Shown here one piece after another: positions 3,724 to 57,148 of a stretch of 64,000 nt of DNA. The DNA comes from Escherichia coli (GTDB lineage: Bacteria > Pseudomonadota > Gammaproteobacteria > Enterobacterales > Enterobacteriaceae), in the NCBI RefSeq assembly GCF_036507355.1, contig NZ_AP027877.1; one strand, given 5' to 3'. The translations under genes were made by a program, and so were the position numbers. How positions within the stretch are numbered: the stretch's first letter is position 1; each line of letters begins with the position of its first letter. Below the pieces are notes generated by a model. The model did no database searches and had not been told where the DNA came from. It worked only from the letters and a program-made list of their open reading frames with translations.

Positions 3724-4683
3724 TTAGCGCGCGTTACGCAGCTTTTGCAAACAACGCTTCAAACCTTCATCCATCGGCGCTTCGATACGCATCACCTCAC
3801 CGGTCCCCGGATGGGTAAACTTCAACGCTGCGGCGTGCAGGAACAGACGATTTAATCCCGTGCCTGCTTCAGTGAGCTGTCTGTCAAATTCACGGTCACC
3901 GTAGCGATCGTCAAAGGCAATCGGATGACCCGCATACTGTGTATGCACACGGATCTGATGAGTACGCCCTGTTACCGGGCTACAACGCACCAGGGTGGCA
4001 AATACATAGCGTTCTTCCACTTTAAAGCGTGTTTCCGACGGTTTGCCTTCCTGACTTACACGCACGATACGTTCGCCGCTTTGCAGAATATTTTTCAGTA
4101 ACGGCGCTTGAACGCTCTTCACATGCGACTGCCACTGACCACGCACCAGCGCCAGGTAATCTTTTTGCATCCCTTTTTCACGTAATTGCTCATGCAGAGA
4201 ACGCAACGCCGAGCGTTTTTTCGCTACCAGCAACACACCTGAAGTGTCCCGGTCGAGACGATGAACCAGTTCAAGGAACCGCGCTTCCGGGCGCAACGCC
4301 CGCAAACCTTCAATAACGCCGAAGCTTAAACCACTGCCGCCATGTACCGCCGTACCGGAAGGTTTATTCAGCACCAGGATATGATCATCTTCATATAAGA
4401 TGACGTCCGCCAGCGCCGCCACCTTTTGCAGATGTGGCGAAACCGCCTCTTCTTCCCGCTCAGCAACGCGAACCGGTGGGATACGCACCTCATCACCCGC
4501 TTCGAGTTTATATTCAGGCTTAATACGTTTTTTGTTCACCCGCACTTCGCCTTTACGCAAAATACGGTAAATCATACTTTTTGGTACGCCTTTCAATTGG
4601 GTACGCAAAAAGTTATCGATACGTTGCCCCGCTTCGTCAGCGGTGATAGCAACAATTTTTACGGATGGAGTCTCTGTTTTCAT
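3724..4683 (-). CDS. rluC: 23S rRNA pseudouridine synthase RluC
   Basis: ORF track 319 aa, MKTETPSVKIVAITADEAGQRIDNFLR; RluA-family core. Confidence 0.95.
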   Translation of the reverse strand: MKTETPSVKIVAITADEAGQRIDNFLRTQLKGVPKSMIYRILRKGEVRVNKKRIKPEYKLEAGDEVRIPPVRVAEREEEAVSPHLQKVAALADVILYEDDHILVLNKPSGTAVHGGSGLSFGVIEGLRALRPEARFLELVHRLDRDTSGVLLVAKKRSALRSLHEQLREKGMQKDYLALVRGQWQSHVKSVQAPLLKNILQSGERIVRVSQEGKPSETRFKVEERYVFATLVRCSPVTGRTHQIRVHTQYAGHPIAFDDRYGDREFDRQLTEAGTGLNRLFLHAAALKFTHPGTGEVMRIEAPMDEGLKRCLQKLRNAR

Positions 4684-5255: not shown

Positions 5256-8200
5256 ATGAAAAGAATGTTAATCAACGCAACTCAGCAGGAAGAGTTGCGC
5301 GTTGCCCTTGTAGATGGGCAGCGTCTGTATGACCTGGATATCGAAAGTCCAGGGCACGAGCAGAAAAAGGCAAACATCTACAAAGGTAAAATCACCCGCA
5401 TTGAACCGAGTCTGGAAGCTGCTTTTGTTGATTACGGCGCTGAACGTCACGGTTTCCTCCCACTAAAAGAAATTGCCCGCGAATATTTCCCTGCTAACTA
5501 CAGTGCTCATGGTCGTCCCAACATTAAAGATGTGTTGCGTGAAGGTCAGGAAGTCATTGTTCAGATCGATAAAGAAGAGCGCGGCAACAAAGGCGCGGCA
5601 TTAACCACCTTTATCAGTCTGGCGGGTAGCTATCTGGTTCTGATGCCGAACAACCCGCGCGCGGGTGGCATTTCTCGCCGTATCGAAGGCGACGACCGTA
5701 CCGAATTAAAAGAAGCACTGGCAAGCCTTGAACTGCCGGAAGGCATGGGGCTTATCGTGCGCACCGCTGGCGTCGGCAAATCTGCTGAGGCGCTGCAATG
5801 GGATTTAAGCTTCCGTCTGAAACACTGGGAAGCCATCAAAAAAGCCGCTGAAAGCCGTCCGGCTCCGTTCCTGATTCATCAGGAGAGCAACGTAATCGTT
5901 CGCGCATTCCGCGATTACTTACGCCAGGACATCGGCGAAATCCTTATCGATAACCCGAAAGTGCTCGAGCTGGCACGTCAGCATATCGCTGCATTAGGTC
6001 GCCCGGATTTCAGCAGCAAAATCAAACTGTACACCGGCGAGATCCCGCTGTTCAGCCACTACCAGATCGAGTCACAGATCGAGTCCGCCTTCCAGCGTGA
6101 AGTTCGTCTGCCGTCTGGTGGTTCCATTGTTATCGACAGCACCGAAGCGTTAACGGCCATCGACATCAACTCCGCACGCGCGACCCGCGGCGGCGATATC
6201 GAAGAAACCGCGTTTAACACTAACCTCGAAGCTGCCGATGAGATTGCTCGTCAGCTGCGCCTGCGTGACCTCGGCGGCCTGATTGTTATCGACTTCATCG
6301 ACATGACGCCAGTACGCCACCAGCGTGCGGTAGAAAACCGTCTGCGTGAAGCGGTGCGTCAGGACCGTGCGCGTATTCAAATCAGCCATATTTCTCGCTT
6401 TGGCCTGCTGGAAATGTCCCGTCAGCGCCTGAGCCCATCACTGGGTGAATCCAGCCATCACGTCTGCCCGCGCTGCTCCGGTACCGGTACCGTGCGTGAC
6501 AACGAATCGCTGTCGCTCTCTATTCTGCGTCTGATCGAAGAAGAAGCGCTGAAAGAGAACACCCAGGAAGTTCACGCCATTGTTCCTGTGCCAATCGCTT
6601 CTTATCTGCTGAATGAAAAACGTTCTGCAGTGAATGCGATTGAAACTCGTCAGGACGGCGTGCGCTGTGTGATTGTGCCAAACGATCAGATGGAAACCCC
6701 GCACTACCATGTGCTGCGCGTGCGCAAAGGGGAAGAAACCCCAACCTTAAGCTACATGCTGCCGAAGCTGCATGAAGAAGCGATGGCGCTGCCGTCTGAA
6801 GAAGAGTTCGCTGAACGTAAGCGTCCGGAACAACCTGCGCTGGCTACCTTTGCCATGCCGGATGTGCCGCCAGCACCAACCCCAGCTGAACCTGCCGCGC
6901 CTGTCGTAGCCCCAGCACCTAAAGCTGCACCGGCAACACCAGCAGCTCCTGCACAACCTGGGCTGTTAAGCCGCTTCTTCGGTGCACTGAAAGCGCTGTT
7001 CAGCGGTGGTGAAGAAACCAAACCGACCGAGCAACCAGCACCGAAAGCAGAAGCGAAACCGGAACGTCAACAGGATCGTCGTAAGCCTCGTCAGAACAAC
7101 CGCCGTGACCGTAATGAGCGCCGCGATACCCGTAGTGAACGTACAGAAGGCAGCGATAATCGCGAAGAAAACCGTCGTAATCGTCGCCAGGCACAGCAGC
7201 AGACTGCCGAGACGCGTGAGAGTCGTCAGCAGGCTGAGGTAACGGAAAAAGCGCGTACCACCGACGAGCAGCAAGCGCCGCGTCGTGAACGTAGCCGCCG
7301 CCGTAATGATGATAAACGTCAGGCGCAACAAGAAGCGAAGGCGCTGAATGTTGAAGAGCAATCTGTTCAGGAAACCGAACAGGAAGAACGTGTACGTCCG
7401 GTTCAGCCGCGTCGTAAACAGCGTCAGCTCAATCAGAAAGTGCGTTACGAGCAAAGCGTAGCCGAAGAAGCGGTAGTCGCACCGGTGGTTGAAGAAACTG
7501 TCGCTGCCGAACCAATTGTTCAGGAAGCGCCAGCTCCACGCACAGAACTGGTGAAAGTCCCGCTGCCAGTCGTAGCGCAAACTGCACCAGAACAGCAAGA
7601 AGAGAACAATGCTGATAACCGTGACAACGGTGGCATGCCGCGTCGTTCTCGCCGCTCGCCTCGTCACCTGCGCGTAAGTGGTCAGCGTCGTCGTCGCTAT
7701 CGTGACGAGCGTTATCCAACCCAGTCGCCAATGCCGTTGACCGTGGCGTGCGCGTCTCCGGAACTGGCCTCTGGCAAAGTCTGGATCCGCTATCCAATTG
7801 TACGTCCGCAAGATGTACAGGTTGAAGAGCAGCGCGAACAGGAAGAAGTACATGTGCAGCCGATGGTGACTGAGGTCCCTGTCGCCGCCGCTATCGAACC
7901 GGTTGTTAGCGCGCCAGTTGTTGAAGAAGTGGCCGGTGTCGTAGAAGCCCCCGTTCAGGTTGCCGAACCGCAACCGGAAGTGGTTGAAACGACGCATCCT
8001 GAAGTGATTGCTGCCGCGGTAACTGAACAGCCGCAGGTGATTACCGAGTCTGATGTTGCCGTAGCCCAGGAAGTTGCAGAACAAGCAGAACCGGTGGTTG
8101 AACCGCAGGAAGAGACGGCAGATATTGAAGAAGTTGTCGAAACTGCTGAGGTTGTAGTTGCTGAACCTGAAGTTGTTGCTCAACCTGCCGCGCCAGTCGT

Positions 8201-50007: not shown

Positions 50008-50745
50008 TTAAAGGTCTGCAAATTCCGCAATCGGTGCCATACCGCGAGATTCAAGGAAGTTCAGTAAGCGGCGCGGAGAAACATTCAAAATGCGCTCTGG
50101 CGGAAAATCTACCGCGTCGAGGATTTTAAGACACTCTTCAAATTCCCCCATGGTAAACGCGGTGTGAGAATCCGAGCCTAATGCCACCCAACCTCCAGCA
50201 TCACGTACCGCTGCGGCTACCGCACGACAGTTGTCTTCACTGCCCTTACGTGAGTGTAAAAATGAGGAATTATTGATTTCCAGCGCCACCTGATGTTTCG
50301 CGGCTGCTTCAGCAACGGCTTTAACATCTATTTCATATTTCGGATTTCCGGGATGGCTTATTATATGCACATTGCCGCTGGCGATAGTGGCGATCATCGC
50401 TTGTGTATTGGTCGCTTTGTCATGTGGTGCAAAAACCGGCTCATGAAAACCGGCAATAATCAGATCCAGCGAGTCAAACATTTTACCGCTGCAATCAATT
50501 TCACCATCAACATTTTTAATGTTAGCTTCGATGCCGCGCAGGATCCCTACCCCATCAACCACTCGCGGCCAGATACGCATGTTAATGAAGTGCCAGTGAT
50601 GCGGCGCATCTTCCATGTCCGGGCCATGATCGGTAATCGCAAAAAGTTTAATGCCCTTTTGTTTGGCCTGGGCAATGTAATCACTCAATGTGCTATATGC
50701 ATGTGTGCTGGCAACAGTATGCATATGAAGGTCGACGGGATACAT
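50008..50745 (-). CDS. ycdX: PHP-family phosphatase YcdX
   Basis: ORF track 245 aa, [21 protein letters not shown] motif. Confidence 0.92.
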
Positions 50746-50799
50746 AACTCTCTCCTCTATTCAATTCCCGCCAAGGATAGCAGGAATCCTGATGCTTTA

Positions 50800-51777
<978 letters not shown>

Positions 51778-51971
51778 TTATCGTTATGATCTACAAAGAC
51801 CACCAGCATAACAAATCCGTGGTCGGTGGCAAAAAAAGCAGATTTCGCTTATTAAAACTGCATATTGATTGAAGTTTGAATAAACGCGCGATTTTTTAAA
51901 AAAGTTTGTTGACCTCAGGTCATGATTTCCCTAAATTAGCGCCCGTTCCAGCAAGACAGGAACGACAATTT

Positions 51972-52059
51972 GGTGAGGTGTCCGAGTGGCTGAAGGAGCA
52001 CGCCTGGAAAGTGTGTATACGGCAACGTATCGGGGGTTCGAATCCCCCCCTCACCGCCA
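51972..52059 (+). tRNA. serX: tRNA-Ser (anticodon GGA)
   Basis: 88-nt sequence ggtgaggtgtccgagtggctgaaggagcacgcctGGAaagtgtg...ggttcgaatccccccctcaccgcca with long variable arm and T-loop GTTCGAATC, followed by a hairpin plus T-run terminator. Confidence 0.92.
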
Positions 52060-52251
52060 TATTTAAAGAAGAGCTCGTACGAAAGTACGGGCTTTTTTTT
52101 CGTATATTGCACACACCGGGTGCCCCCGCCCACGTCTGTTAGGGCGAGGGGAAATCGTGCACATCAACTGTCTGGTTACTCAGTCAACAATCAAAATGCG
52201 CAAGAGAGTACAGAACATATATGTATTATCTGGTCACTTCCTATCACTTCC

Positions 52252-53238
52252 TCACTTATTAAAATGCCCCCAACGGAAATACATGTCACATGCCATCATA
52301 AAATCGTTATGCCAGAGGAATCGACAATAGAAAAAATAGTAAATTAAGCACGGTACATAGCAGAGTAAAAAATAGGCTTCAAACCAAATCCGCCATTCCA
52401 CAAGCGTTGCCAATACCGACACCAGCGTAATCCACATCACTTCAATAACCAGCAATATGAATAACCGAAGCCAAAGCGGCTTGGCAAAAAAGGTCGACAA
52501 CACATTTTCACTGGAGAAAAAGAGATCGATTTCCTGCAAAAAAAGCCTGCCCAAAAAAGCGTACCGCCTGGAGAAGCGCAGAAAAAACAGATTAATCGCC
52601 AACACTACGCCACAAAGAATGAGCAATGCAATTATCGATTTAAACGTTAACCACTGCCCCTCTATCACAAAAGAATCACTGTTACGCAACGGGCTGATAG
52701 TAAGCAGGTTAACAACCGTTGAGATGCACACCGAAAGCAGCACATAGCGAGTCAGACTTCTATATTTTACTTTTTTCGCTACTGAAATAGCGACCTGCTT
52801 GACATAACTGGTGCGGATCATCCGAAACAGCAGAAAGATAACCAACGGCCCAAGTAACGAAATCAGGAACAGCGTATATAACGAGGGTAGAAGCTGGTAT
52901 AGCCCCCAACTCATTGCACTCAACATGATTAACGACAGAAATCCTGCCACCAGAGGTTGTGTAAGAAATAATTCTATTTTGTGGTTCTGCTTTTTCTTAA
53001 ACCACGAAAAATCGATATTCTTCGTGACGCATTTATAAGCCCAGTACGCCTTGAGATCAAAAATAAAATTATACAGCACCAGGGCCAGAATCCCACTAAC
53101 GACACCAATATCCTCTGATGGAAAAGTAAATCCTGCATTTTTCCAATAAAAGCCTATCAGAATAAGTCCAATAGCATAAATGTATATCAGACTTCGTTTA
53201 TCCTGAAAGCGAATAAAAGTTAAATAATCAGGAATCAT
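52252..53238 (-). CDS. ycdU: Polytopic inner membrane protein YcdU
   Basis: ORF track 328 aa; very hydrophobic and A+T-rich; start overlaps the stop of the upstream acyltransferase gene by 4 nt. Confidence 0.85.
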
Positions 53239-54179
53239 TTGAATACCTTCGCATCACTAAATGCTTTACGACAATGCATAACTCGTTGCTGATCCACGCC
53301 AGCGAAATCATTTAACATATTCCCCAAATAGGGCTTATTACTTATTTCAAGGAAAGCTACCGAGGTTGGCATATTCAGAAATGTATCGAGAGATTCAGTC
53401 CATTTCACCGTATGAGTTAAGTGTAATGAGAGATTTTCTTTGATAATTGACGGAGCGACCTCGCTTTTTGCTGTTACGTTCATCAGAACCTGATGCTCTG
53501 GCGAAGCGATATCCAGTCCGGCAAGATAATCGCGCATTGCCTGAACGCCGTCTTCCATCAAACGCGTGTGCCAGGCACCGCTCACACCGAGTTTAACCGG
53601 TTCGTATCCAGCGGCCATCAGCAGCGTGGCAAATTCATTCAACGCAGCCTGCGTTCCCCCAATAACCTGCTGGCGCGGCGTGTTATCACAGCTAATATCC
53701 AGCGCAATGCCTGATTCCGTAATCATCGTCTGCAGTTGTTCGCGGTTGATGCCTTTAACCGCCAGCATTGCGCCTTTATTTCTCTGGCTTTCATCATGCA
53801 TCAGGCTGGCTCTGAAGTGAATCATGCCAAATAGCGTCTCAAGAGAAATAGCTCCAGCGGCGTAGAGCGCACTGTATTCACCAACGCTGTGTCCGCAGGA
53901 GCCCACAACCGTTAAATTCTCAAGACGCTCGCGGCACAGGGTATAGAGCGTTACATTAATTGCGGTCACCGCCAGTTGTTGTACCGTCGTTTGAATAAGG
54001 CGATTCATCGGCCCTTTCTGACACAGGCGACGCAGGTTCAGTCCGGAAATATCGCTGGCACAATCCCAGATATGTTTTGTACTGGCGTTGAGATCCCAAA
54101 GATCGCTGCCCATACCAATAACCGGATTACCCTGACCGGCAAAAAGCAGTACTGTCGGTTGTGAAGCATTATTCATCAT
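53235..54179 (-). CDS. FabD-like acyltransferase (malonyl-CoA:ACP transacylase family)
   Basis: ORF track 314 aa; [15 protein letters not shown]-terminal motif and [14 protein letters not shown] active-site Ser motif typical of the acyltransferase-1 fold. Confidence 0.75.
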
Positions 54180-54189
54180 CTCTTTATCC

Positions 54190-55578
54190 TTATAGATAGT
54201 ATTTAAAGCCCAAATAAAGGCCTAACGTGTCGCCAAAAAGCGCAAATTCAGAATACCGACTTCCCAGCGCGCTATAGCCACCGGCATAGGCTTCAAGCTG
54301 GTTACTGATAGCACTGAGCGGCGTGGAATAATGCAGGCCCAGCAACGTGCTGCCATCAATGAGATTGACCACCAGCGAAGGCTGCAGCGTCGACTCTCCC
54401 GACAGCGGCAGACTGACCCAGGCGTTCAGATAGTGCTTACCCTGCAGCATCCCCTGATTGGCGGTATTGCTGATTTCTGAAGCCATCAGGTATTTGTAAG
54501 AATCAAATGCCTGATCCAGTGGCGCATAGCCGGTTGTGGTATTGAGGAAGTCAATTAACTCGCGCTGCTGACGCTGTTCAGCGCGCGAATAACCCTCGCT
54601 CTGAAAGTAATACTCAACGCCAAACACGCTGAAATTATCACTGGTGTACTGCCCACCCAGCGCCAGCTCCACGCCGCTTTCATCTTTCGTTTCATAGAGC
54701 GAATCCGGAAACTGATATTCCTCGACCTGCGCCGTCTCACGGTGGGAAAGATGCCGCCATTGCTGGGAGCGGTGGTAGGCTGCGTCGACATTCAGCGTAA
54801 GCTGCGGGGTGTAGTGATAACTGTCAGACAGCGCGAGTGACGGCGATGGTCCGAGCCGCACATTGACTGTCGGCGTGTGCTCACCAAAGCGATGATCGCT
54901 GAAGCTCAGCAGATAGGCTTCGTCGCTGTTTCCCTGCTGATTAGCCGACCAGTTGCCAGACGTCACATAGCGTTTGTCGATGGTGGCTAACTTCGGTATG
55001 ACACTCGCCGAAAACGCATAATCGCGTGTATCCACGCTCATTTTTGCGCCCCACGATGACGCCTGATACGCCGATGTCATTTTGGGATCGTGCAAACGCG
55101 TCGACTGGAATCCGGTGTAATAATGCGTTTGCAAATCAGAAGGCGAACGCAAAAAGAACATTCCTGACGGCGCGGCAAATTTGCCTGCTTCAAATTGAAT
55201 GCTGTCCGAGGCACTATAGACCAGACTGAGGCGGTTAATTAACGCACGCGTGCGGCTATCATCCGTTTCGAATTTCCCTGCGGGTTTAAGCGCATATTCG
55301 TTTATTCCATACAGATTGAGCTTAAGGTCCAGCGTATTGTCGATTATCGAACAACCACTGTTGATGCCAATCCCCGCCTCCTGATAACCGTTGTGACGAG
55401 TGTAGGGATTTTTGCCTGCAATCTGCCAGGCCGAAGCCTGTTTATTGACATAAGACACCTGCTCGTAAAGCGTCACATCGCTGTTTTGTGCCACCTCGTC
55501 ACCTGACAGGCAATCCGCCTGTACCGTCAACGGCAGCGCAACACACAGCAACGAAGAGATCTTCAGCGTACGTTTCAT
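54190..55578 (-). CDS. Putative outer-membrane protein, function unknown
   Basis: ORF track 462 aa; signal peptide MKRTLKISSLLCVALPLTVQA; Tyr/Gly/Ser-rich, no long hydrophobic helices, consistent with a beta-barrel. Confidence 0.55.
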   Translation of the reverse strand: MKRTLKISSLLCVALPLTVQADCLSGDEVAQNSDVTLYEQVSYVNKQASAWQIAGKNPYTRHNGYQEAGIGINSGCSIIDNTLDLKLNLYGINEYALKPAGKFETDDSRTRALINRLSLVYSASDSIQFEAGKFAAPSGMFFLRSPSDLQTHYYTGFQSTRLHDPKMTSAYQASSWGAKMSVDTRDYAFSASVIPKLATIDKRYVTSGNWSANQQGNSDEAYLLSFSDHRFGEHTPTVNVRLGPSPSLALSDSYHYTPQLTLNVDAAYHRSQQWRHLSHRETAQVEEYQFPDSLYETKDESGVELALGGQYTSDNFSVFGVEYYFQSEGYSRAEQRQQRELIDFLNTTTGYAPLDQAFDSYKYLMASEISNTANQGMLQGKHYLNAWVSLPLSGESTLQPSLVVNLIDGSTLLGLHYSTPLSAISNQLEAYAGGYSALGSRYSEFALFGDTLGLYLGFKYYL

Positions 55579-56233
55579 TTCGCACCTCGCTGAATATACT
55601 CTTTGGTGAAATGAAACTCCTGCAGCGATTCCAGACGAACATCGCTGTACTCCATCACTGAATAGTTATTGCCGTGACGGACGTCGGTAACGGTTATTTT
55701 CATGGGTCGCGTTTTCCCCAACACCGGCTGGAAATCCTGATACAACACTTCTTTTATTAACTGGTCATCCTGCGAGTAATAGGCTGCCTTCCACGGGCGA
55801 TTATCACCGTCTTTTTCAACGTAATAGATAACCTTCGGCCAGGTGATATCCGCCGATTTACGCACCAGCGCCAGCTTGTAACACTGCTTTTCAGCACACG
55901 TGACTTCCCCCACCAGGGTCGAGTCATAGGCATATTCAAAGTTAGTGACAATGACATCGCCGTTAGAGATTTGCCCAATTAATCTTTGTTGCCGTGAAAT
56001 AGGCATAGGACGTCGCAGTTCCGGCGTGTAAAACCATAAATCGTACCAGTCGGAAAGCATGATTTTTCCTTTATCTCGCGGCGGATAAATAAAACGCACC
56101 AGCGAGCGTGCATCCGCTTTTTCATTACCCTGCGGTTTCATAAAGCGCATGGAAATATCGAGGACCTGTTTATTCTCTGGCTGGGTTGTGCCCGCTTTAT
56201 ATTCCGTTACCGTCAGCGTGTAACGAAACGGTT

Positions 56234-56242
56234 TATTCGGCG
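56234..56242. repeat. Left 9-bp target-site duplication of IS1 copy 1 (TATTCGGCG)
   Basis: Identical 9-mer directly flanks both IS1 ends. Confidence 0.9.
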
Positions 56243-56297
56243 GGTGATGCTGCCAACTTACTGATTTAGTGTATGATGGTGTTTTTGAGGTGCTCCA

Positions 56298-56573
56298 GTG
56301 GCTTCTGTTTCTATCAGCTGTCCCTCCTGTTCAGCTACTGACGGGGTGGTGCGTAACGGCAAAAGCACCGCCGGACATCAGCGCTATCTCTGCTCTCACT
56401 GTCGTAAAACATGGCAACTGCAGTTCACTTACACCGCTTCTCAACCCGGTACGCACCAGAAAATCATTGATATGGCCATGAATGGCGTTGGATGCCGGGC
56501 AACAGCCCGCATTATGGGCGTTGGCCTCAACACGATTTTACGTCACTTAAAAAACTCAGGCCGCAGTCGGTAA
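56298..56573 (+). CDS. insA: IS1 InsA
   Basis: ORF track 91 aa, zinc-finger CxxC...CxxC. Confidence 0.93.
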
Positions 56574-56995
56574 CCTCGCGCATACAGCCGGGCAGTGACG
56601 TCATCGTCTGCGCGGAAATGGACGAACAGTGGGGCTATGTCGGGGCTAAATCGCGCCAGCGCTGGCTGTTTTACGCGTATGACAGGCTCCGGAAGACGGT
56701 TGTTGCGCACGTATTCGGTGAACGCACGATGGCGACGCTGGGGCGTCTTATGAGCCTGCTGTCACCCTTTGACGTGGTGATATGGATGACGGATGGCTGG
56801 CCGCTGTATGAATCCCGCCTGAAGGGAAAGCTGCACGTAATCAGCAAGCGATATACGCAGCGAATTGAGCGGCATAACCTGAATCTGAGGCAGCACCTGG
56901 CACGGCTGGGACGGAAGTCGCTGTCGTTCTCAAAATCGGTGGAGCTGCATGACAAAGTCATCGGGCATTATCTGAACATAAAACACTATCAATAA
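56492..56995 (+). CDS. insB: IS1 InsB (transposase made as an InsAB' frameshift fusion)
   Basis: ORF track 167 aa, overlaps insA in the -1 frame. Confidence 0.93.
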
Positions 56996-57010
56996 GTTGG
57001 AGTCATTACC

Positions 57011-57019
57011 TATTCGGCG
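57011..57019. repeat. Right 9-bp target-site duplication of IS1 copy 1 (TATTCGGCG)
   Basis: Identical to 56234..56242. Confidence 0.9.
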
Positions 57020-57148
57020 AACGAATTTCGTCAGCGCGACGAATTATCTCCAGCGCCTTATCATCTGTGCTCGCCGCCTGAACGCACGACGTAGCGAGCC
57101 ACAGGCAAGCAAACCACTTGCCGTAAAAAGCCATATTCATAATTAGCC

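Follow-up and report, generated by a model that had tools for sequence, protein, structure and literature searches.

Accessory DNA that starts directly behind a tRNA gene raises the question of whether the gene was its point of entry. An earlier note on the 64,000-nucleotide stretch of Escherichia coli DNA analyzed here (the window) took the tRNA-Ser gene serX for the boundary between the conserved backbone and an A+T-rich accessory segment reaching to dgcT, and proposed an old, eroded islet with serX as its insertion point. We compared the locus with 5,426 complete E. coli genomes and with 80 species loci from other Enterobacteriaceae (reaching up to 10 kb from serX). We consider it probable that serX edges a set of nested modules and that the block from ycdU to pdeT is a derived insertion or replacement that did not involve the tRNA and decayed later.

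The serX Edge and the Downstream Genes

The features of the region are listed in Table 1. Both the tRNA-Ser gene and the terminator reported behind it were recovered: the gene was called by ARAGORN and Rfam alike, and the hairpin at 52065–52100 folds strongly (−24.3 kcal/mol, z = −5.95, no shuffled sequence being equally stable). With an A-tract on its 5′ and a U-tract on its 3′ side, the hairpin reads as a terminator on the minus strand too. This bidirectional terminator lies within a 61-nt tail that corresponds to the first part of a 181-bp RtT-like unit, and the putative promoter of serX ends 35 nt 5′ of the tRNA. The flank that follows the tail contains an imperfect GC-rich hairpin (~52122–52152) and had no match downstream of ycdU in the clusters of other hosts. 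ycdU, the last gene of a lipid/polyketide-like cluster, shares 4 nt with the gene before it; YcdU and the cluster proteins of 462, 218, and 317 aa matched no family in Pfam or NCBIfam.

Table 1. Features of the window from the serX promoter region to pgaA
Feature	Position	Strand	Basis
Promoter-like site of serX (TTGACC, 17 nt spacer, TAAATT)	51909-51937	+	Consensus scan alone, 9/12 matches
serX, tRNA-Ser(GGA), intact, without an island in the gene	51972-52059	+	ARAGORN; Rfam tRNA, 53.8 bits
61-nt tail after serX, common to all serX alleles	52060-52120	+	Homology to ST131, K-12, TB06052, and B379 up to 52120
Flank specific to the ycdU-type allele	52121-52251		Diverges from the RtT B-part at exactly 52121 vs. 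K-12 and ST131
ycdU, 328 aa, inner-membrane protein in others' annotation	52252-53238	-	ORF list
Full-length ACP S-malonyltransferase, intact form of the K-12 pseudogene ymdE	53235-54179	-	Pfam Acyl_transf_1, E = 1e-24; RefSeq annotation in TB06052 and K-12
Conserved 462-aa cluster protein	54190-55578	-	Position in cluster kept in L087, L089, and L091
LolA-like (TP_0789-like) gene, 3′ part, cut by IS1	55575-56242	-	Pfam LolA_like, E = 6e-36; collinear with TB06052 to 56242
IS1 copy 1, 768 bp, terminal inverted repeats	56243-57010	+	Simple insertion, 9-bp target duplication
LolA-like gene, 5′ part (signal-peptide end)	57011-57140	-	Translation starts MNMAFYGKWF...; collinear with TB06052
MacB/FtsX-type ABC transporter permease	57149-58459	-	Pfam FtsX, MacB_PCD
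Conserved 218-aa cluster protein	58460-59116	-	Position kept in L087, L089, and L091
ABC transporter ATPase gene, 3′ fragment, truncated by IS1 copy 2	59100-59426	-	Translation has LSGGQQQRVAIARAL; TB06052 homology stops at 59426
IS1 copy 2	59427-60194	-	Pfam DDE_Tnp_IS1; inverted vs. copy 1, 767/768 identical
Truncated CSS-EAL c-di-GMP phosphodiesterase gene (pdeT/vmpA type)	60195-61389	-	Pfam CSS-motif and partial EAL; N-terminal 399 codons left
dgcT (ycdT), MASE4-GGDEF diguanylate cyclase	61487-62845	-	Pfam MASE4, GGDEF
pgaA, 5′ part, runs off the window; in the wider serX–phoH variable interval	63433-64000	+	tblastn, 99.5% identity to TB06052 PgaA residues 1-189

Composition Does Not Identify the Boundary

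The sharp turn to A+T-rich sequence that had been seen after serX is real for ycdU, whose GC content is 0.404 in comparison with 0.505 in positions 1–51971 of the window, but it does not extend to the segment as a whole: the cluster genes at 53.2–59.1 kb have a backbone-like GC content of 0.47–0.53. Values as low as that of ycdU occur in 5.9% of windows of the same length and in 2% of those inside the backbone part. Broken down by codon position, GC1/GC2/GC3 are 0.41/0.32/0.48 in ycdU and 0.63/0.42/0.47 in ghrA, and 52% of the YcdU residues are F, I, L, M, N, K, or Y; ycdU homologues from three other hosts have the same pattern. Because the third-position GC of ycdU is normal, the drop reflects the amino acid content of a membrane protein and gives no sign of foreign origin, and for the same reason composition is not valid evidence for acquisition here. 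A low third-position GC is found at 60.2–62.8 kb, beyond the positions given in the earlier note, in the truncated pdeT (GC3 0.33) and, less marked, in dgcT (0.41). Across the block, GC3 spans 0.29–0.62, a compositional mosaic, so the block may have been built in several steps rather than one.

These numbers could be read to mean that there is no boundary at all, the GC drop being ordinary gene-to-gene variation within a backbone region. The normal GC3 of ycdU fits this reading, as do the backbone genes csgD, csgE, and csgF, likewise at ~42% GC, and earlier literature takes ycdU for the chromosomal flank of O-island 48 (OI-48) (PMC3064760). Against it, everything beyond position 52120 is variable among the 5,426 genomes and the 80 species loci, which refutes the reading and leaves it hardly credible. 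At this locus, the drop in GC beside a tRNA gene only mimics a textbook island; the actual proof of accessory status is comparative.

A Variable Interval between serX and phoH

On its ghrA side, serX has a fixed context: it lies upstream of ghrA in 76 of the 76 Enterobacteriaceae species loci reaching that far, mostly at a distance of ~230–270 bp. Downstream of serX, three main alleles account for all but ~5% of the 5,426 E. coli genomes. ycdU is present in 2,662 of them (49%), 1,452 (27%; the ST131 type) join serX directly to dgcT, and 1,032 (19%) have the order serX–DUF2726–phoH and lack pga and dgcT. The full block of ~33 kb is kept in only 7% of the genomes, the middle of the cluster (KS852) in 383 of the 2,662 ycdU-positive genomes, 86% of which are without the cluster interior, and pdeT in 414 genomes; K-12 holds an IS3-truncated version of the block.

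Outside E. coli, neither ycdU nor any other cluster gene was found within reach (up to 10 kb) of serX in the 80 species loci. In the simplest of these loci, phoH follows ~200 bp from serX, and in several Citrobacter, Escherichia, and other loci it lies 111–240 bp from a copy of tRNA-Ser. phoH and efeB were found on the far side within 10 kb in 37 loci. The cargo between the flanks differs by genus, including type I-F cas genes, nanE, or pirin/isochorismatase/LysR genes, and some loci are nearly empty. The serX–phoH interval is a chromosomal hotspot, with conserved flanks and a cargo that varies by strain and species.

The segment from serX to dgcT, not conserved in related genera, is on this comparative evidence truly accessory. 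The claim of the earlier note needs adjusting at both ends. serX does form a fixed edge of the backbone, but neither as an insertion site nor by composition; and the variable segment does not stop at dgcT, since dgcT itself varies, as does pgaABCD, and the conserved flank on the far side is reached only at phoH (PMC4951805). We propose an old variable interval in the chromosome of Enterobacteriaceae, extending from serX to phoH, whose fixed left edge would be serX with its terminator. In the window, this interval would consist of nested accessory modules, pgaABCD–dgcT on the outside and the ycdU-to-pdeT block, ~33 kb if intact, on the inside.

The Block Begins and Ends Outside the tRNA Gene

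The junction on the serX side falls at 52120/52121, 61 nt past the tRNA, beyond the terminator and inside the RtT-like unit, and the far junction falls within the coding sequence of dgcT. Comparison with ST131, the divergent Escherichia lineage L008, and database variants assigns the last 10 codons of dgcT (tail RDVVNFCESP, within 61487–61520) to the inserted block; DgcT acquired its alternative C-terminal tail as a side effect of that insertion. There is no clean empty site: the empty allele differs by replacement and carries, in place of the block, ~43 nt of RtT unit and the last ~43 nt (~13 codons) of dgcT. Searches for direct or inverted repeats joining the two ends of the intact 33-kb block gave only chance-level 7–9-mers.

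The earlier note had seen neither an integrase nor a repeat of the tRNA 3′ end, and mismatch-tolerant searches of the 64 kb agree: the terminal 25-mer (≤3 mismatches) and 14-mer (≤2 mismatches) match only the tRNA itself, and an integrase domain is absent among the window ORFs. The annotation of the intact 33-kb version also lacks an integrase or integrase fragment. The positions of the two junctions indicate that the block did not enter through the tRNA gene, and serX does not stand as its insertion point. Because the tRNA gene is not the integration site, no integrase or tRNA repeat would be expected.

The contrast with islands that do use serX is direct. P4-type integrase islands, namely OI-48/SpLE1 (the tellurite resistance and adherence island), SRL-PAI-like, and CP4-like elements, make serX a proven integration site (PMC3064760), and like the window segment they place accessory DNA directly downstream of the gene. 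They carry an integrase and 14-bp repeats of the tRNA 3′ end, neither of which the window segment has. The OI-48-like and CP4-like islands that we saw in other strains break at or within the last 14 nt of the tRNA (window 52046–52063), between serX and ycdU, whereas the window segment starts at 52121; these true serX islands leave the 61-nt tail and ycdU on their far side. Among the 80 species loci, a tblastn query with the OI-48 integrase matched one (L028, Salmonella enterica diarizonae) and, weakly, another (L017).

Given this precedent, the block could be an old integrase-mediated island at the 3′ end of serX that has since lost its integrase and the flanking tRNA repeat. The segment is accessory and heavily eroded, and in K-12-type alleles each 181-bp RtT unit before the ycdU flank ends in the last 19 nt of the tRNA, which hold the 14-nt att core. 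The junction, though, lies 61 nt past the tRNA or its 19-nt copy, and those 61 nt follow serX in every allele; the far end is within dgcT; the intact 33 kb has no integrase annotation and no repeat linking its ends; and the OI-48-type islands between serX and ycdU reveal the real att position. We regard integrase-mediated entry as quite unlikely.

In other Enterobacterales (L087, L089, and L091), ycdU closes this cluster in every case. The cluster itself is mobile: its gene order recurs at unrelated sites, some by conjugation genes or on a plasmid. None of these copies adjoins a tRNA. No donor with the whole 33-kb block was found.

Probable Insertion Rather than Loss

The same junctions can be approached from the other side, with the ycdU–pdeT block ancestral to E. 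coli, the ST131-type serX–dgcT allele a secondary deletion, and serX the scar of that deletion. Losses occur often here (the IS1 deletion of the window, the IS3-linked truncation of K-12, and the many ycdU-positive genomes without the cluster interior), and the partial RtT unit and altered DgcT tail of the ST131 junction could also come from a deletion. The distribution of the two DgcT tails argues otherwise. L008, with a DgcT only 78% identical, shares with ST131 both the RtT-B(~41–43)/dgcT junction and the KEAE...KDD tail. Tails of this type are found in DgcT variants of 76% to 99% identity, among them variants of 88–90%, and vary along with the protein, as old sequence would, whereas the RDVVNFCESP tail is invariant. 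Also against a deletion are the absence of the block from all 80 species loci and the absence of even pga and dgcT from E. albertii and from 19% of the E. coli genomes. We therefore assign ancestral presence with secondary deletion a small probability, and the polarity appears to be that of insertion.

The polarity argument draws mainly on L008 and the tail diversity in databases, and an ancient transfer of a B2-type pga–dgcT allele into the L008 lineage is possible. One candidate for counter-evidence, P0144, has the RDVVNFCESP tail on a DgcT of 75% identity; in nearly every segment its nearest match is the window type, and the sequence looks error-laden, so we set it aside.

With insertion as the preferred polarity, the block would have been gained by one E. 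coli lineage, through insertion or replacement, and would have displaced the first ~43 nt of an RtT-like unit behind serX and the final ~13 codons of dgcT. The likely route would be a single illegitimate recombination, after which homologous recombination in the conserved flanks would have spread the block.

IS1-Associated Decay of the Block

That the accessory operon is IS1-damaged and the segment an eroded remnant, as the earlier note had it, could be confirmed in detail. IS1 copy 1 is flanked by a target duplication (56234–56242 and 57011–57019) that corresponds on both sides to positions 4565–4573 of TB06052, a relative with the intact block. IS1 copy 2 lacks a target duplication; its flanks correspond to TB06052 (L006) positions 6980 and 32371, a deletion of 25,390 bp between 59426 and 60195. 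What remains of pdeT in the window is 99.5% identical to the EAL gene region of TB06052. The double-IS1 layout was matched by no complete E. coli genome.

Direct sequence comparison shows the course that this decay took in the window: one IS1 went into the LolA-like gene, and a second lies at the 25.4-kb deletion reaching from the ABC ATPase gene into pdeT. The block decayed separately in different lineages, with IS elements pruning the acquired DNA differently in each.

Relation to Known Islands

The locus has been described before, both as O-island 47 (OI-47) and as the pga–ycdU "genome island". OI-47 of E. coli O157:H7 EDL933 comprises z1528–z1556, 31,727 bp, with grvA (Perna et al. 2001; PMC8565820), and it occupies the same place as the window segment, between dgcT (ycdT) and ycdU; the same gene order was found in TB06052 and in an O157-type strain. 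The intact TB06052 block encodes a CSS-EAL phosphodiesterase, a ToxR-like wHTH regulator, chaperone-usher fimbriae, a two-partner secretion pair, and the fatty-acid/polyketide-like cluster. We take the inner block to be probably OI-47 together with a tail shared with K-12, ycdU and ymdE; it would consist of a 15-gene lipid/polyketide-like synthesis/export cluster ending in ycdU, the two-partner secretion pair, the chaperone-usher fimbrial operon, the grvA regulator, and pdeT. Window positions 55900–59426 are 98.5% identical to O157:H7 genomes other than EDL933 (PA20, 86-24 derivatives, and FDAARGOS_293). Whereas OI-47 has a full content of 27 ORFs (grvA, fimbriae, and two-partner secretion among them), the window is a remnant missing 25,390 bp and keeps only its ends, ~7 kb of cluster genes, ycdU included, and 1.2 kb of pdeT. 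The reference used to define OI-47 was K-12, hence ycdU and ymdE passed for backbone; in our comparison both fall in the same inserted block and are better annotated as the tail of OI-47.

The pga–ycdU island was described as flanked by efeB/phoH and ghrA/ycdXYZ, and the IS3-truncated ymdE of K-12 was noted with it (Goldstone et al. 2016, PMC4951805). That study concerns the same interval and reached the same conclusion of variability; it dealt with gene carriage in phylogroup A, in contrast to the junctions, polarity, RtT array, and other genera considered here. The hotspot takes up acquired DNA of both kinds, at the tRNA att site (OI-48-type islands, in other strains) and away from it (the OI-47-type block). 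The current view of E. coli genome plasticity is unchanged by these findings.

RtT-Like Repeats after serX

The serX array resembles the RtT repeats of the tyrT operon (RF00391): K-12 has four tandem 181-bp units after serX (46.3 bits each; gathering score, 45). The window retains no unit past the first 61 nt, and an Rfam search of positions 50500–54000 gave no RtT match even at E ≤ 1, only chance-level matches overlapping the tRNA. The literature on RtT contained nothing about serX, and the array matters here only as the place where the allele junctions fall. RtT-like arrays follow serX in most of the Enterobacteriaceae genera sampled. The joins of the three E. coli alleles to the array lie at unit positions 61, 83, and ~104; in other genera, the arrays break off within a unit, at positions that vary. 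It is conceivable, if unlikely, that the array with its copies of the tRNA 3′ end is the actual recombination substrate, a family-wide, integrase-independent landing pad; the expansion to four units in K-12 and the collapse to zero in the window would then be by-products.

serX as the Edge of an Accessory Segment

The window holds the E. coli csg–serX–pga region, in which csgDEFG, ycdZYX, and ghrA lie on one side of the sole tRNA gene, serX (ARAGORN, with Rfam concordant), and ycdU, a lipid-type gene cluster, dgcT, and pgaA on the other. Both the locus and the fact that it varies have been published: Goldstone et al. (PMC4951805) described pgaD–ycdU as an apparent genome island, with efeB/phoH and ghrA/ycdXYZ as its flanks. 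To this we add incrementally the exact junctions with an array of RtT repeats (Rfam RF00391) as their context, an apparently replaced DgcT tail, a census of three E. coli alleles, and the placing of ycdU and ymdE in the block of O-island 47 (OI-47). The interpretation in the earlier note was half right: serX does lie at the edge of acquired and decayed DNA, but the arguments from composition and tRNA entry, and the extent given to the segment, did not hold.

A promoter-like site ends 35 nt before the tRNA, and an A-tract/hairpin/U-tract starts six bases past it (−24.3 kcal/mol, z = −5.95 in comparison with shuffled sequences). Since the minus strand, too, reads as a terminator here, the structure can close both serX and the convergent operon ending in ycdU. 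We mapped the remaining segment by comparison with TB06052, a strain in which the interval is intact.

Features of the serX–pgaA segment in window coordinates
Feature	Position	Strand
serX, tRNA-Ser(GGA)	51972–52059	+
A-tract/hairpin/U-tract	52065–52100	
ycdU	52252–53238	−
Full-length malonyltransferase (intact ymdE)	53235–54179	−
462-aa protein, no known family	54190–55578	−
LolA-like gene, split by IS1 copy 1	55575–56242 and 57011–57140	−
IS1 copy 1, 9-bp target duplication	56243–57010	+
MacB/FtsX permease	57149–58459	−
218-aa protein, no known family	58460–59116	−
ABC ATPase gene, 3′ fragment	59100–59426	−
IS1 copy 2, inverted, 767/768 identical to copy 1, without target duplication	59427–60194	−
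CSS-EAL phosphodiesterase (pdeT/vmpA type), first 399 codons	60195–61389	−
dgcT	61487–62845	−
pgaA, runs off the window	63433–64000	+

The operon is indeed damaged by IS1, as had been noted: one copy splits the LolA-like gene and the other sits at a 25.4 kb deletion, the two bracketing 2.4 kb of cluster genes (57011–59426). The flanks of copy 2 correspond to TB06052 positions 6980 and 32371, so that 25,390 bp have been lost between them. In its intact form, the interval spans ∼33 kb and holds the remaining lipid-cluster genes (ketosynthases, a GcvT-like protein, ACP, FabZ, an SDR, and AcpS), together with a two-partner secretion pair, a chaperone-usher fimbrial operon, an SDR, a ToxR-like regulator, and full pdeT. 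The double-IS1 layout was found in no complete E. coli genome of the collection, and the erosion events are thus specific to the lineage of the window; the K-12 version is cut by IS3 inside ymdE. The lineage of the window may fall outside the collection and could be one rich in IS1, such as Shigella. The interior of the interval is the counterpart of EDL933 O-island 47, a 31,727-bp block covering z1528–z1556 and including grvA (PMC8565820). The cluster genes of the window match O157:H7 genomes at 98.5%, and our analysis assigns ycdU and ymdE to the same block.

Base Composition

The drop in GC after serX is real, from 0.505 upstream to 0.404 in ycdU, a level as low being reached in only 5.9% of windows of the same length. 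It is limited to ycdU, the cluster genes at 53.2–59.1 kb having a GC of 0.47–0.53, so the accessory segment as a whole is not A+T-rich. The deficit lies in the first and second codon positions (GC1/GC2/GC3 of 0.41/0.32/0.48 in ycdU vs. 0.63/0.42/0.47 in ghrA) and therefore reflects amino acid content, 52% of YcdU residues being F, I, L, M, N, K, or Y. In three homologous clusters of other hosts, ycdU is similarly 3–9 GC points below its neighbors with normal GC3. Given this pattern and a third-position GC at backbone level, composition is no evidence for foreign origin here. Low GC3 was seen in truncated pdeT (0.33) and, less so, in dgcT (0.41), both outside the part that the earlier note had singled out.

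Distribution of Alleles

That the segment is accessory is established by comparison. Among 5,426 complete E. coli genomes, 2,662 (49%) contain ycdU; of these, 383 (7% of all genomes) retain the large ketosynthase gene and 414 (7.6% of all) full pdeT. Another 1,452 genomes (27%) are of the ST131 type, in which 61 nt and then 43 nt of an RtT unit separate serX from dgcT. In a third allele, present in 1,032 genomes (19%; L093 7001–8700), the order is serX–RtT–DUF2726–phoH, without pga, dgcT, and ycdU; E. albertii (L011) has the same layout.

A GhrA scan with one genome per species gave 80 Enterobacteriaceae loci. A tRNA lies upstream of ghrA in all 76 loci reaching far enough, mostly at 230–270 bp, and neither YcdU nor any cluster gene was found near serX in the 80 loci within reach (up to 10 kb). 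pga and dgcT occur at serX in just one other lineage, a divergent Escherichia (L008). In 37 loci, phoH is 111–9,223 bp from a tRNA-Ser copy, the gap being ∼200–240 bp in one Escherichia species (L012) and several Citrobacter (L030, L031, and L034). The census and the species loci together place the variable interval between serX and phoH; the segment is accessory as proposed, but it does not end at dgcT.

The cargo of other species is unrelated to that of the window: type I-F CRISPR-associated genes (Csy3 and Csy4) and a chaperone-usher fimbrial operon downstream of serX in E. whittamii (L010 1–9100), nanE and a symporter in S. enterica arizonae, and, in Enterobacter and Klebsiella, isochorismatase, pirin, and LysR genes lying between two complete copies of tRNA-Ser. 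Such a pair of full-length tRNA-Ser(GGA) genes, oriented alike, encloses 0.4–5.7 kb of cargo of this kind in 34 of the 76 species loci, from Enterobacter, Klebsiella, Leclercia, Lelliottia, Raoultella, and others (within L032–L086, e.g., L038 6595–9771).

Junctions and Mode of Entry

The sequence is common to all alleles as far as 52120, comprising the tRNA and 61 nt. K-12 has four copies (L002 5477–6200; corresponding window tail 52060–52120) of a 181-bp unit made up of these 61 nt, a further 101 nt, and the final 19 nt of the tRNA, and each copy is an RtT match that scores 46.3 bits (gathering score, 45). The ycdU flank starts after the last 61-nt copy, exactly as in the window, which has no RtT unit. 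The ST131 allele passes 43 nt into an RtT unit and continues with the 3′ end of dgcT; the DUF2726 allele, like E. albertii, ends at unit position 83. In most of the sampled Enterobacteriaceae genera, serX is followed by RtT-like arrays, which have long been part of this locus.

The tRNA, suggested earlier as the insertion point, is not the insertion site of the ycdU block. CP4-like islands of other strains start right after the tRNA, the homology with the window stopping at 52063. In an O157-type strain, the 61 nt and ycdU come after a tyrosine integrase and a tRNA remnant of 14 nt, CCCCCTCACCGCCA, in agreement with the P4-family integrase and the 14-bp direct repeats published for OI-43/48 (PMC3064760). 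As these integrase islands lie between serX and ycdU, their att site is the tRNA end, and the ycdU block begins 61 nt past it. The window has no integrase and no second copy of the tRNA end, as the earlier note had observed, and the intact block likewise lacks an integrase and terminal repeats. An integrase island that entered at serX and then eroded is an improbable source of the block, since sequence would have to have been lost at each end, leaving junctions that are not att sites.

At the other end of the block, the ycdU and ST131 types become homologous again inside dgcT, giving two different DgcT ends (window 61487–61520): RDVVNFCESP in the window, K-12, and TB06052, and KEAEILINRKDDE in ST131. 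The RtT(∼41–43)|dgcT junction of ST131 is also present in L008, which has a 78% identical DgcT with a homologous tail, TEAENLMNWKDDD. Among database proteins, the KEAE...KDD tail is found on DgcT variants of 76% to 99% identity and varies along with them, whereas RDVVNFCESP is invariant. The apparent exception, a DgcT database sequence of 75% identity (P0144), looks like an error-laden window-type sequence and was set aside. From the L008 junction and tail and the unequal tail diversity, the ycdU–pdeT block is most likely a derived insertion or replacement, a polarity that we infer mainly from this one deep outgroup. The block would have taken the place of the first part of an RtT unit and of about 13 dgcT codons, and the DgcT tail appears to have been swapped through its insertion.

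The ycdU Cluster in Other Hosts

YcdU homologues are limited to Enterobacterales. The E. coli copies are 97–98% identical and, after a gap, the next relatives follow at 63–72%, with those in Mixta, Enterobacter, Kosakonia, and Klebsiella at 40–54%. In three contexts examined, ycdU is the final gene of the same cluster with different neighbors in each; none has a tRNA nearby, two adjoin conjugation genes, and one homologue is annotated on an Enterobacter plasmid. The shared cluster at differing sites, the conjugation genes, and the plasmid indicate that ycdU arrived within a mobile cluster. No named family was matched by YcdU or by three further proteins of the cluster; judging from the domains, a reasonable guess is that the cluster may make a type II fatty-acid/polyketide-like lipid, for whose export a MacB-type ABC system and a LolA-like partner would serve. 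In metagenome-derived relatives with 63% YcdU identity (L089 and L090 11133–17825), the cluster adjoins genes for TraG_N and a type IV coupling protein, which suggests carriage on an integrative conjugative element or plasmid.
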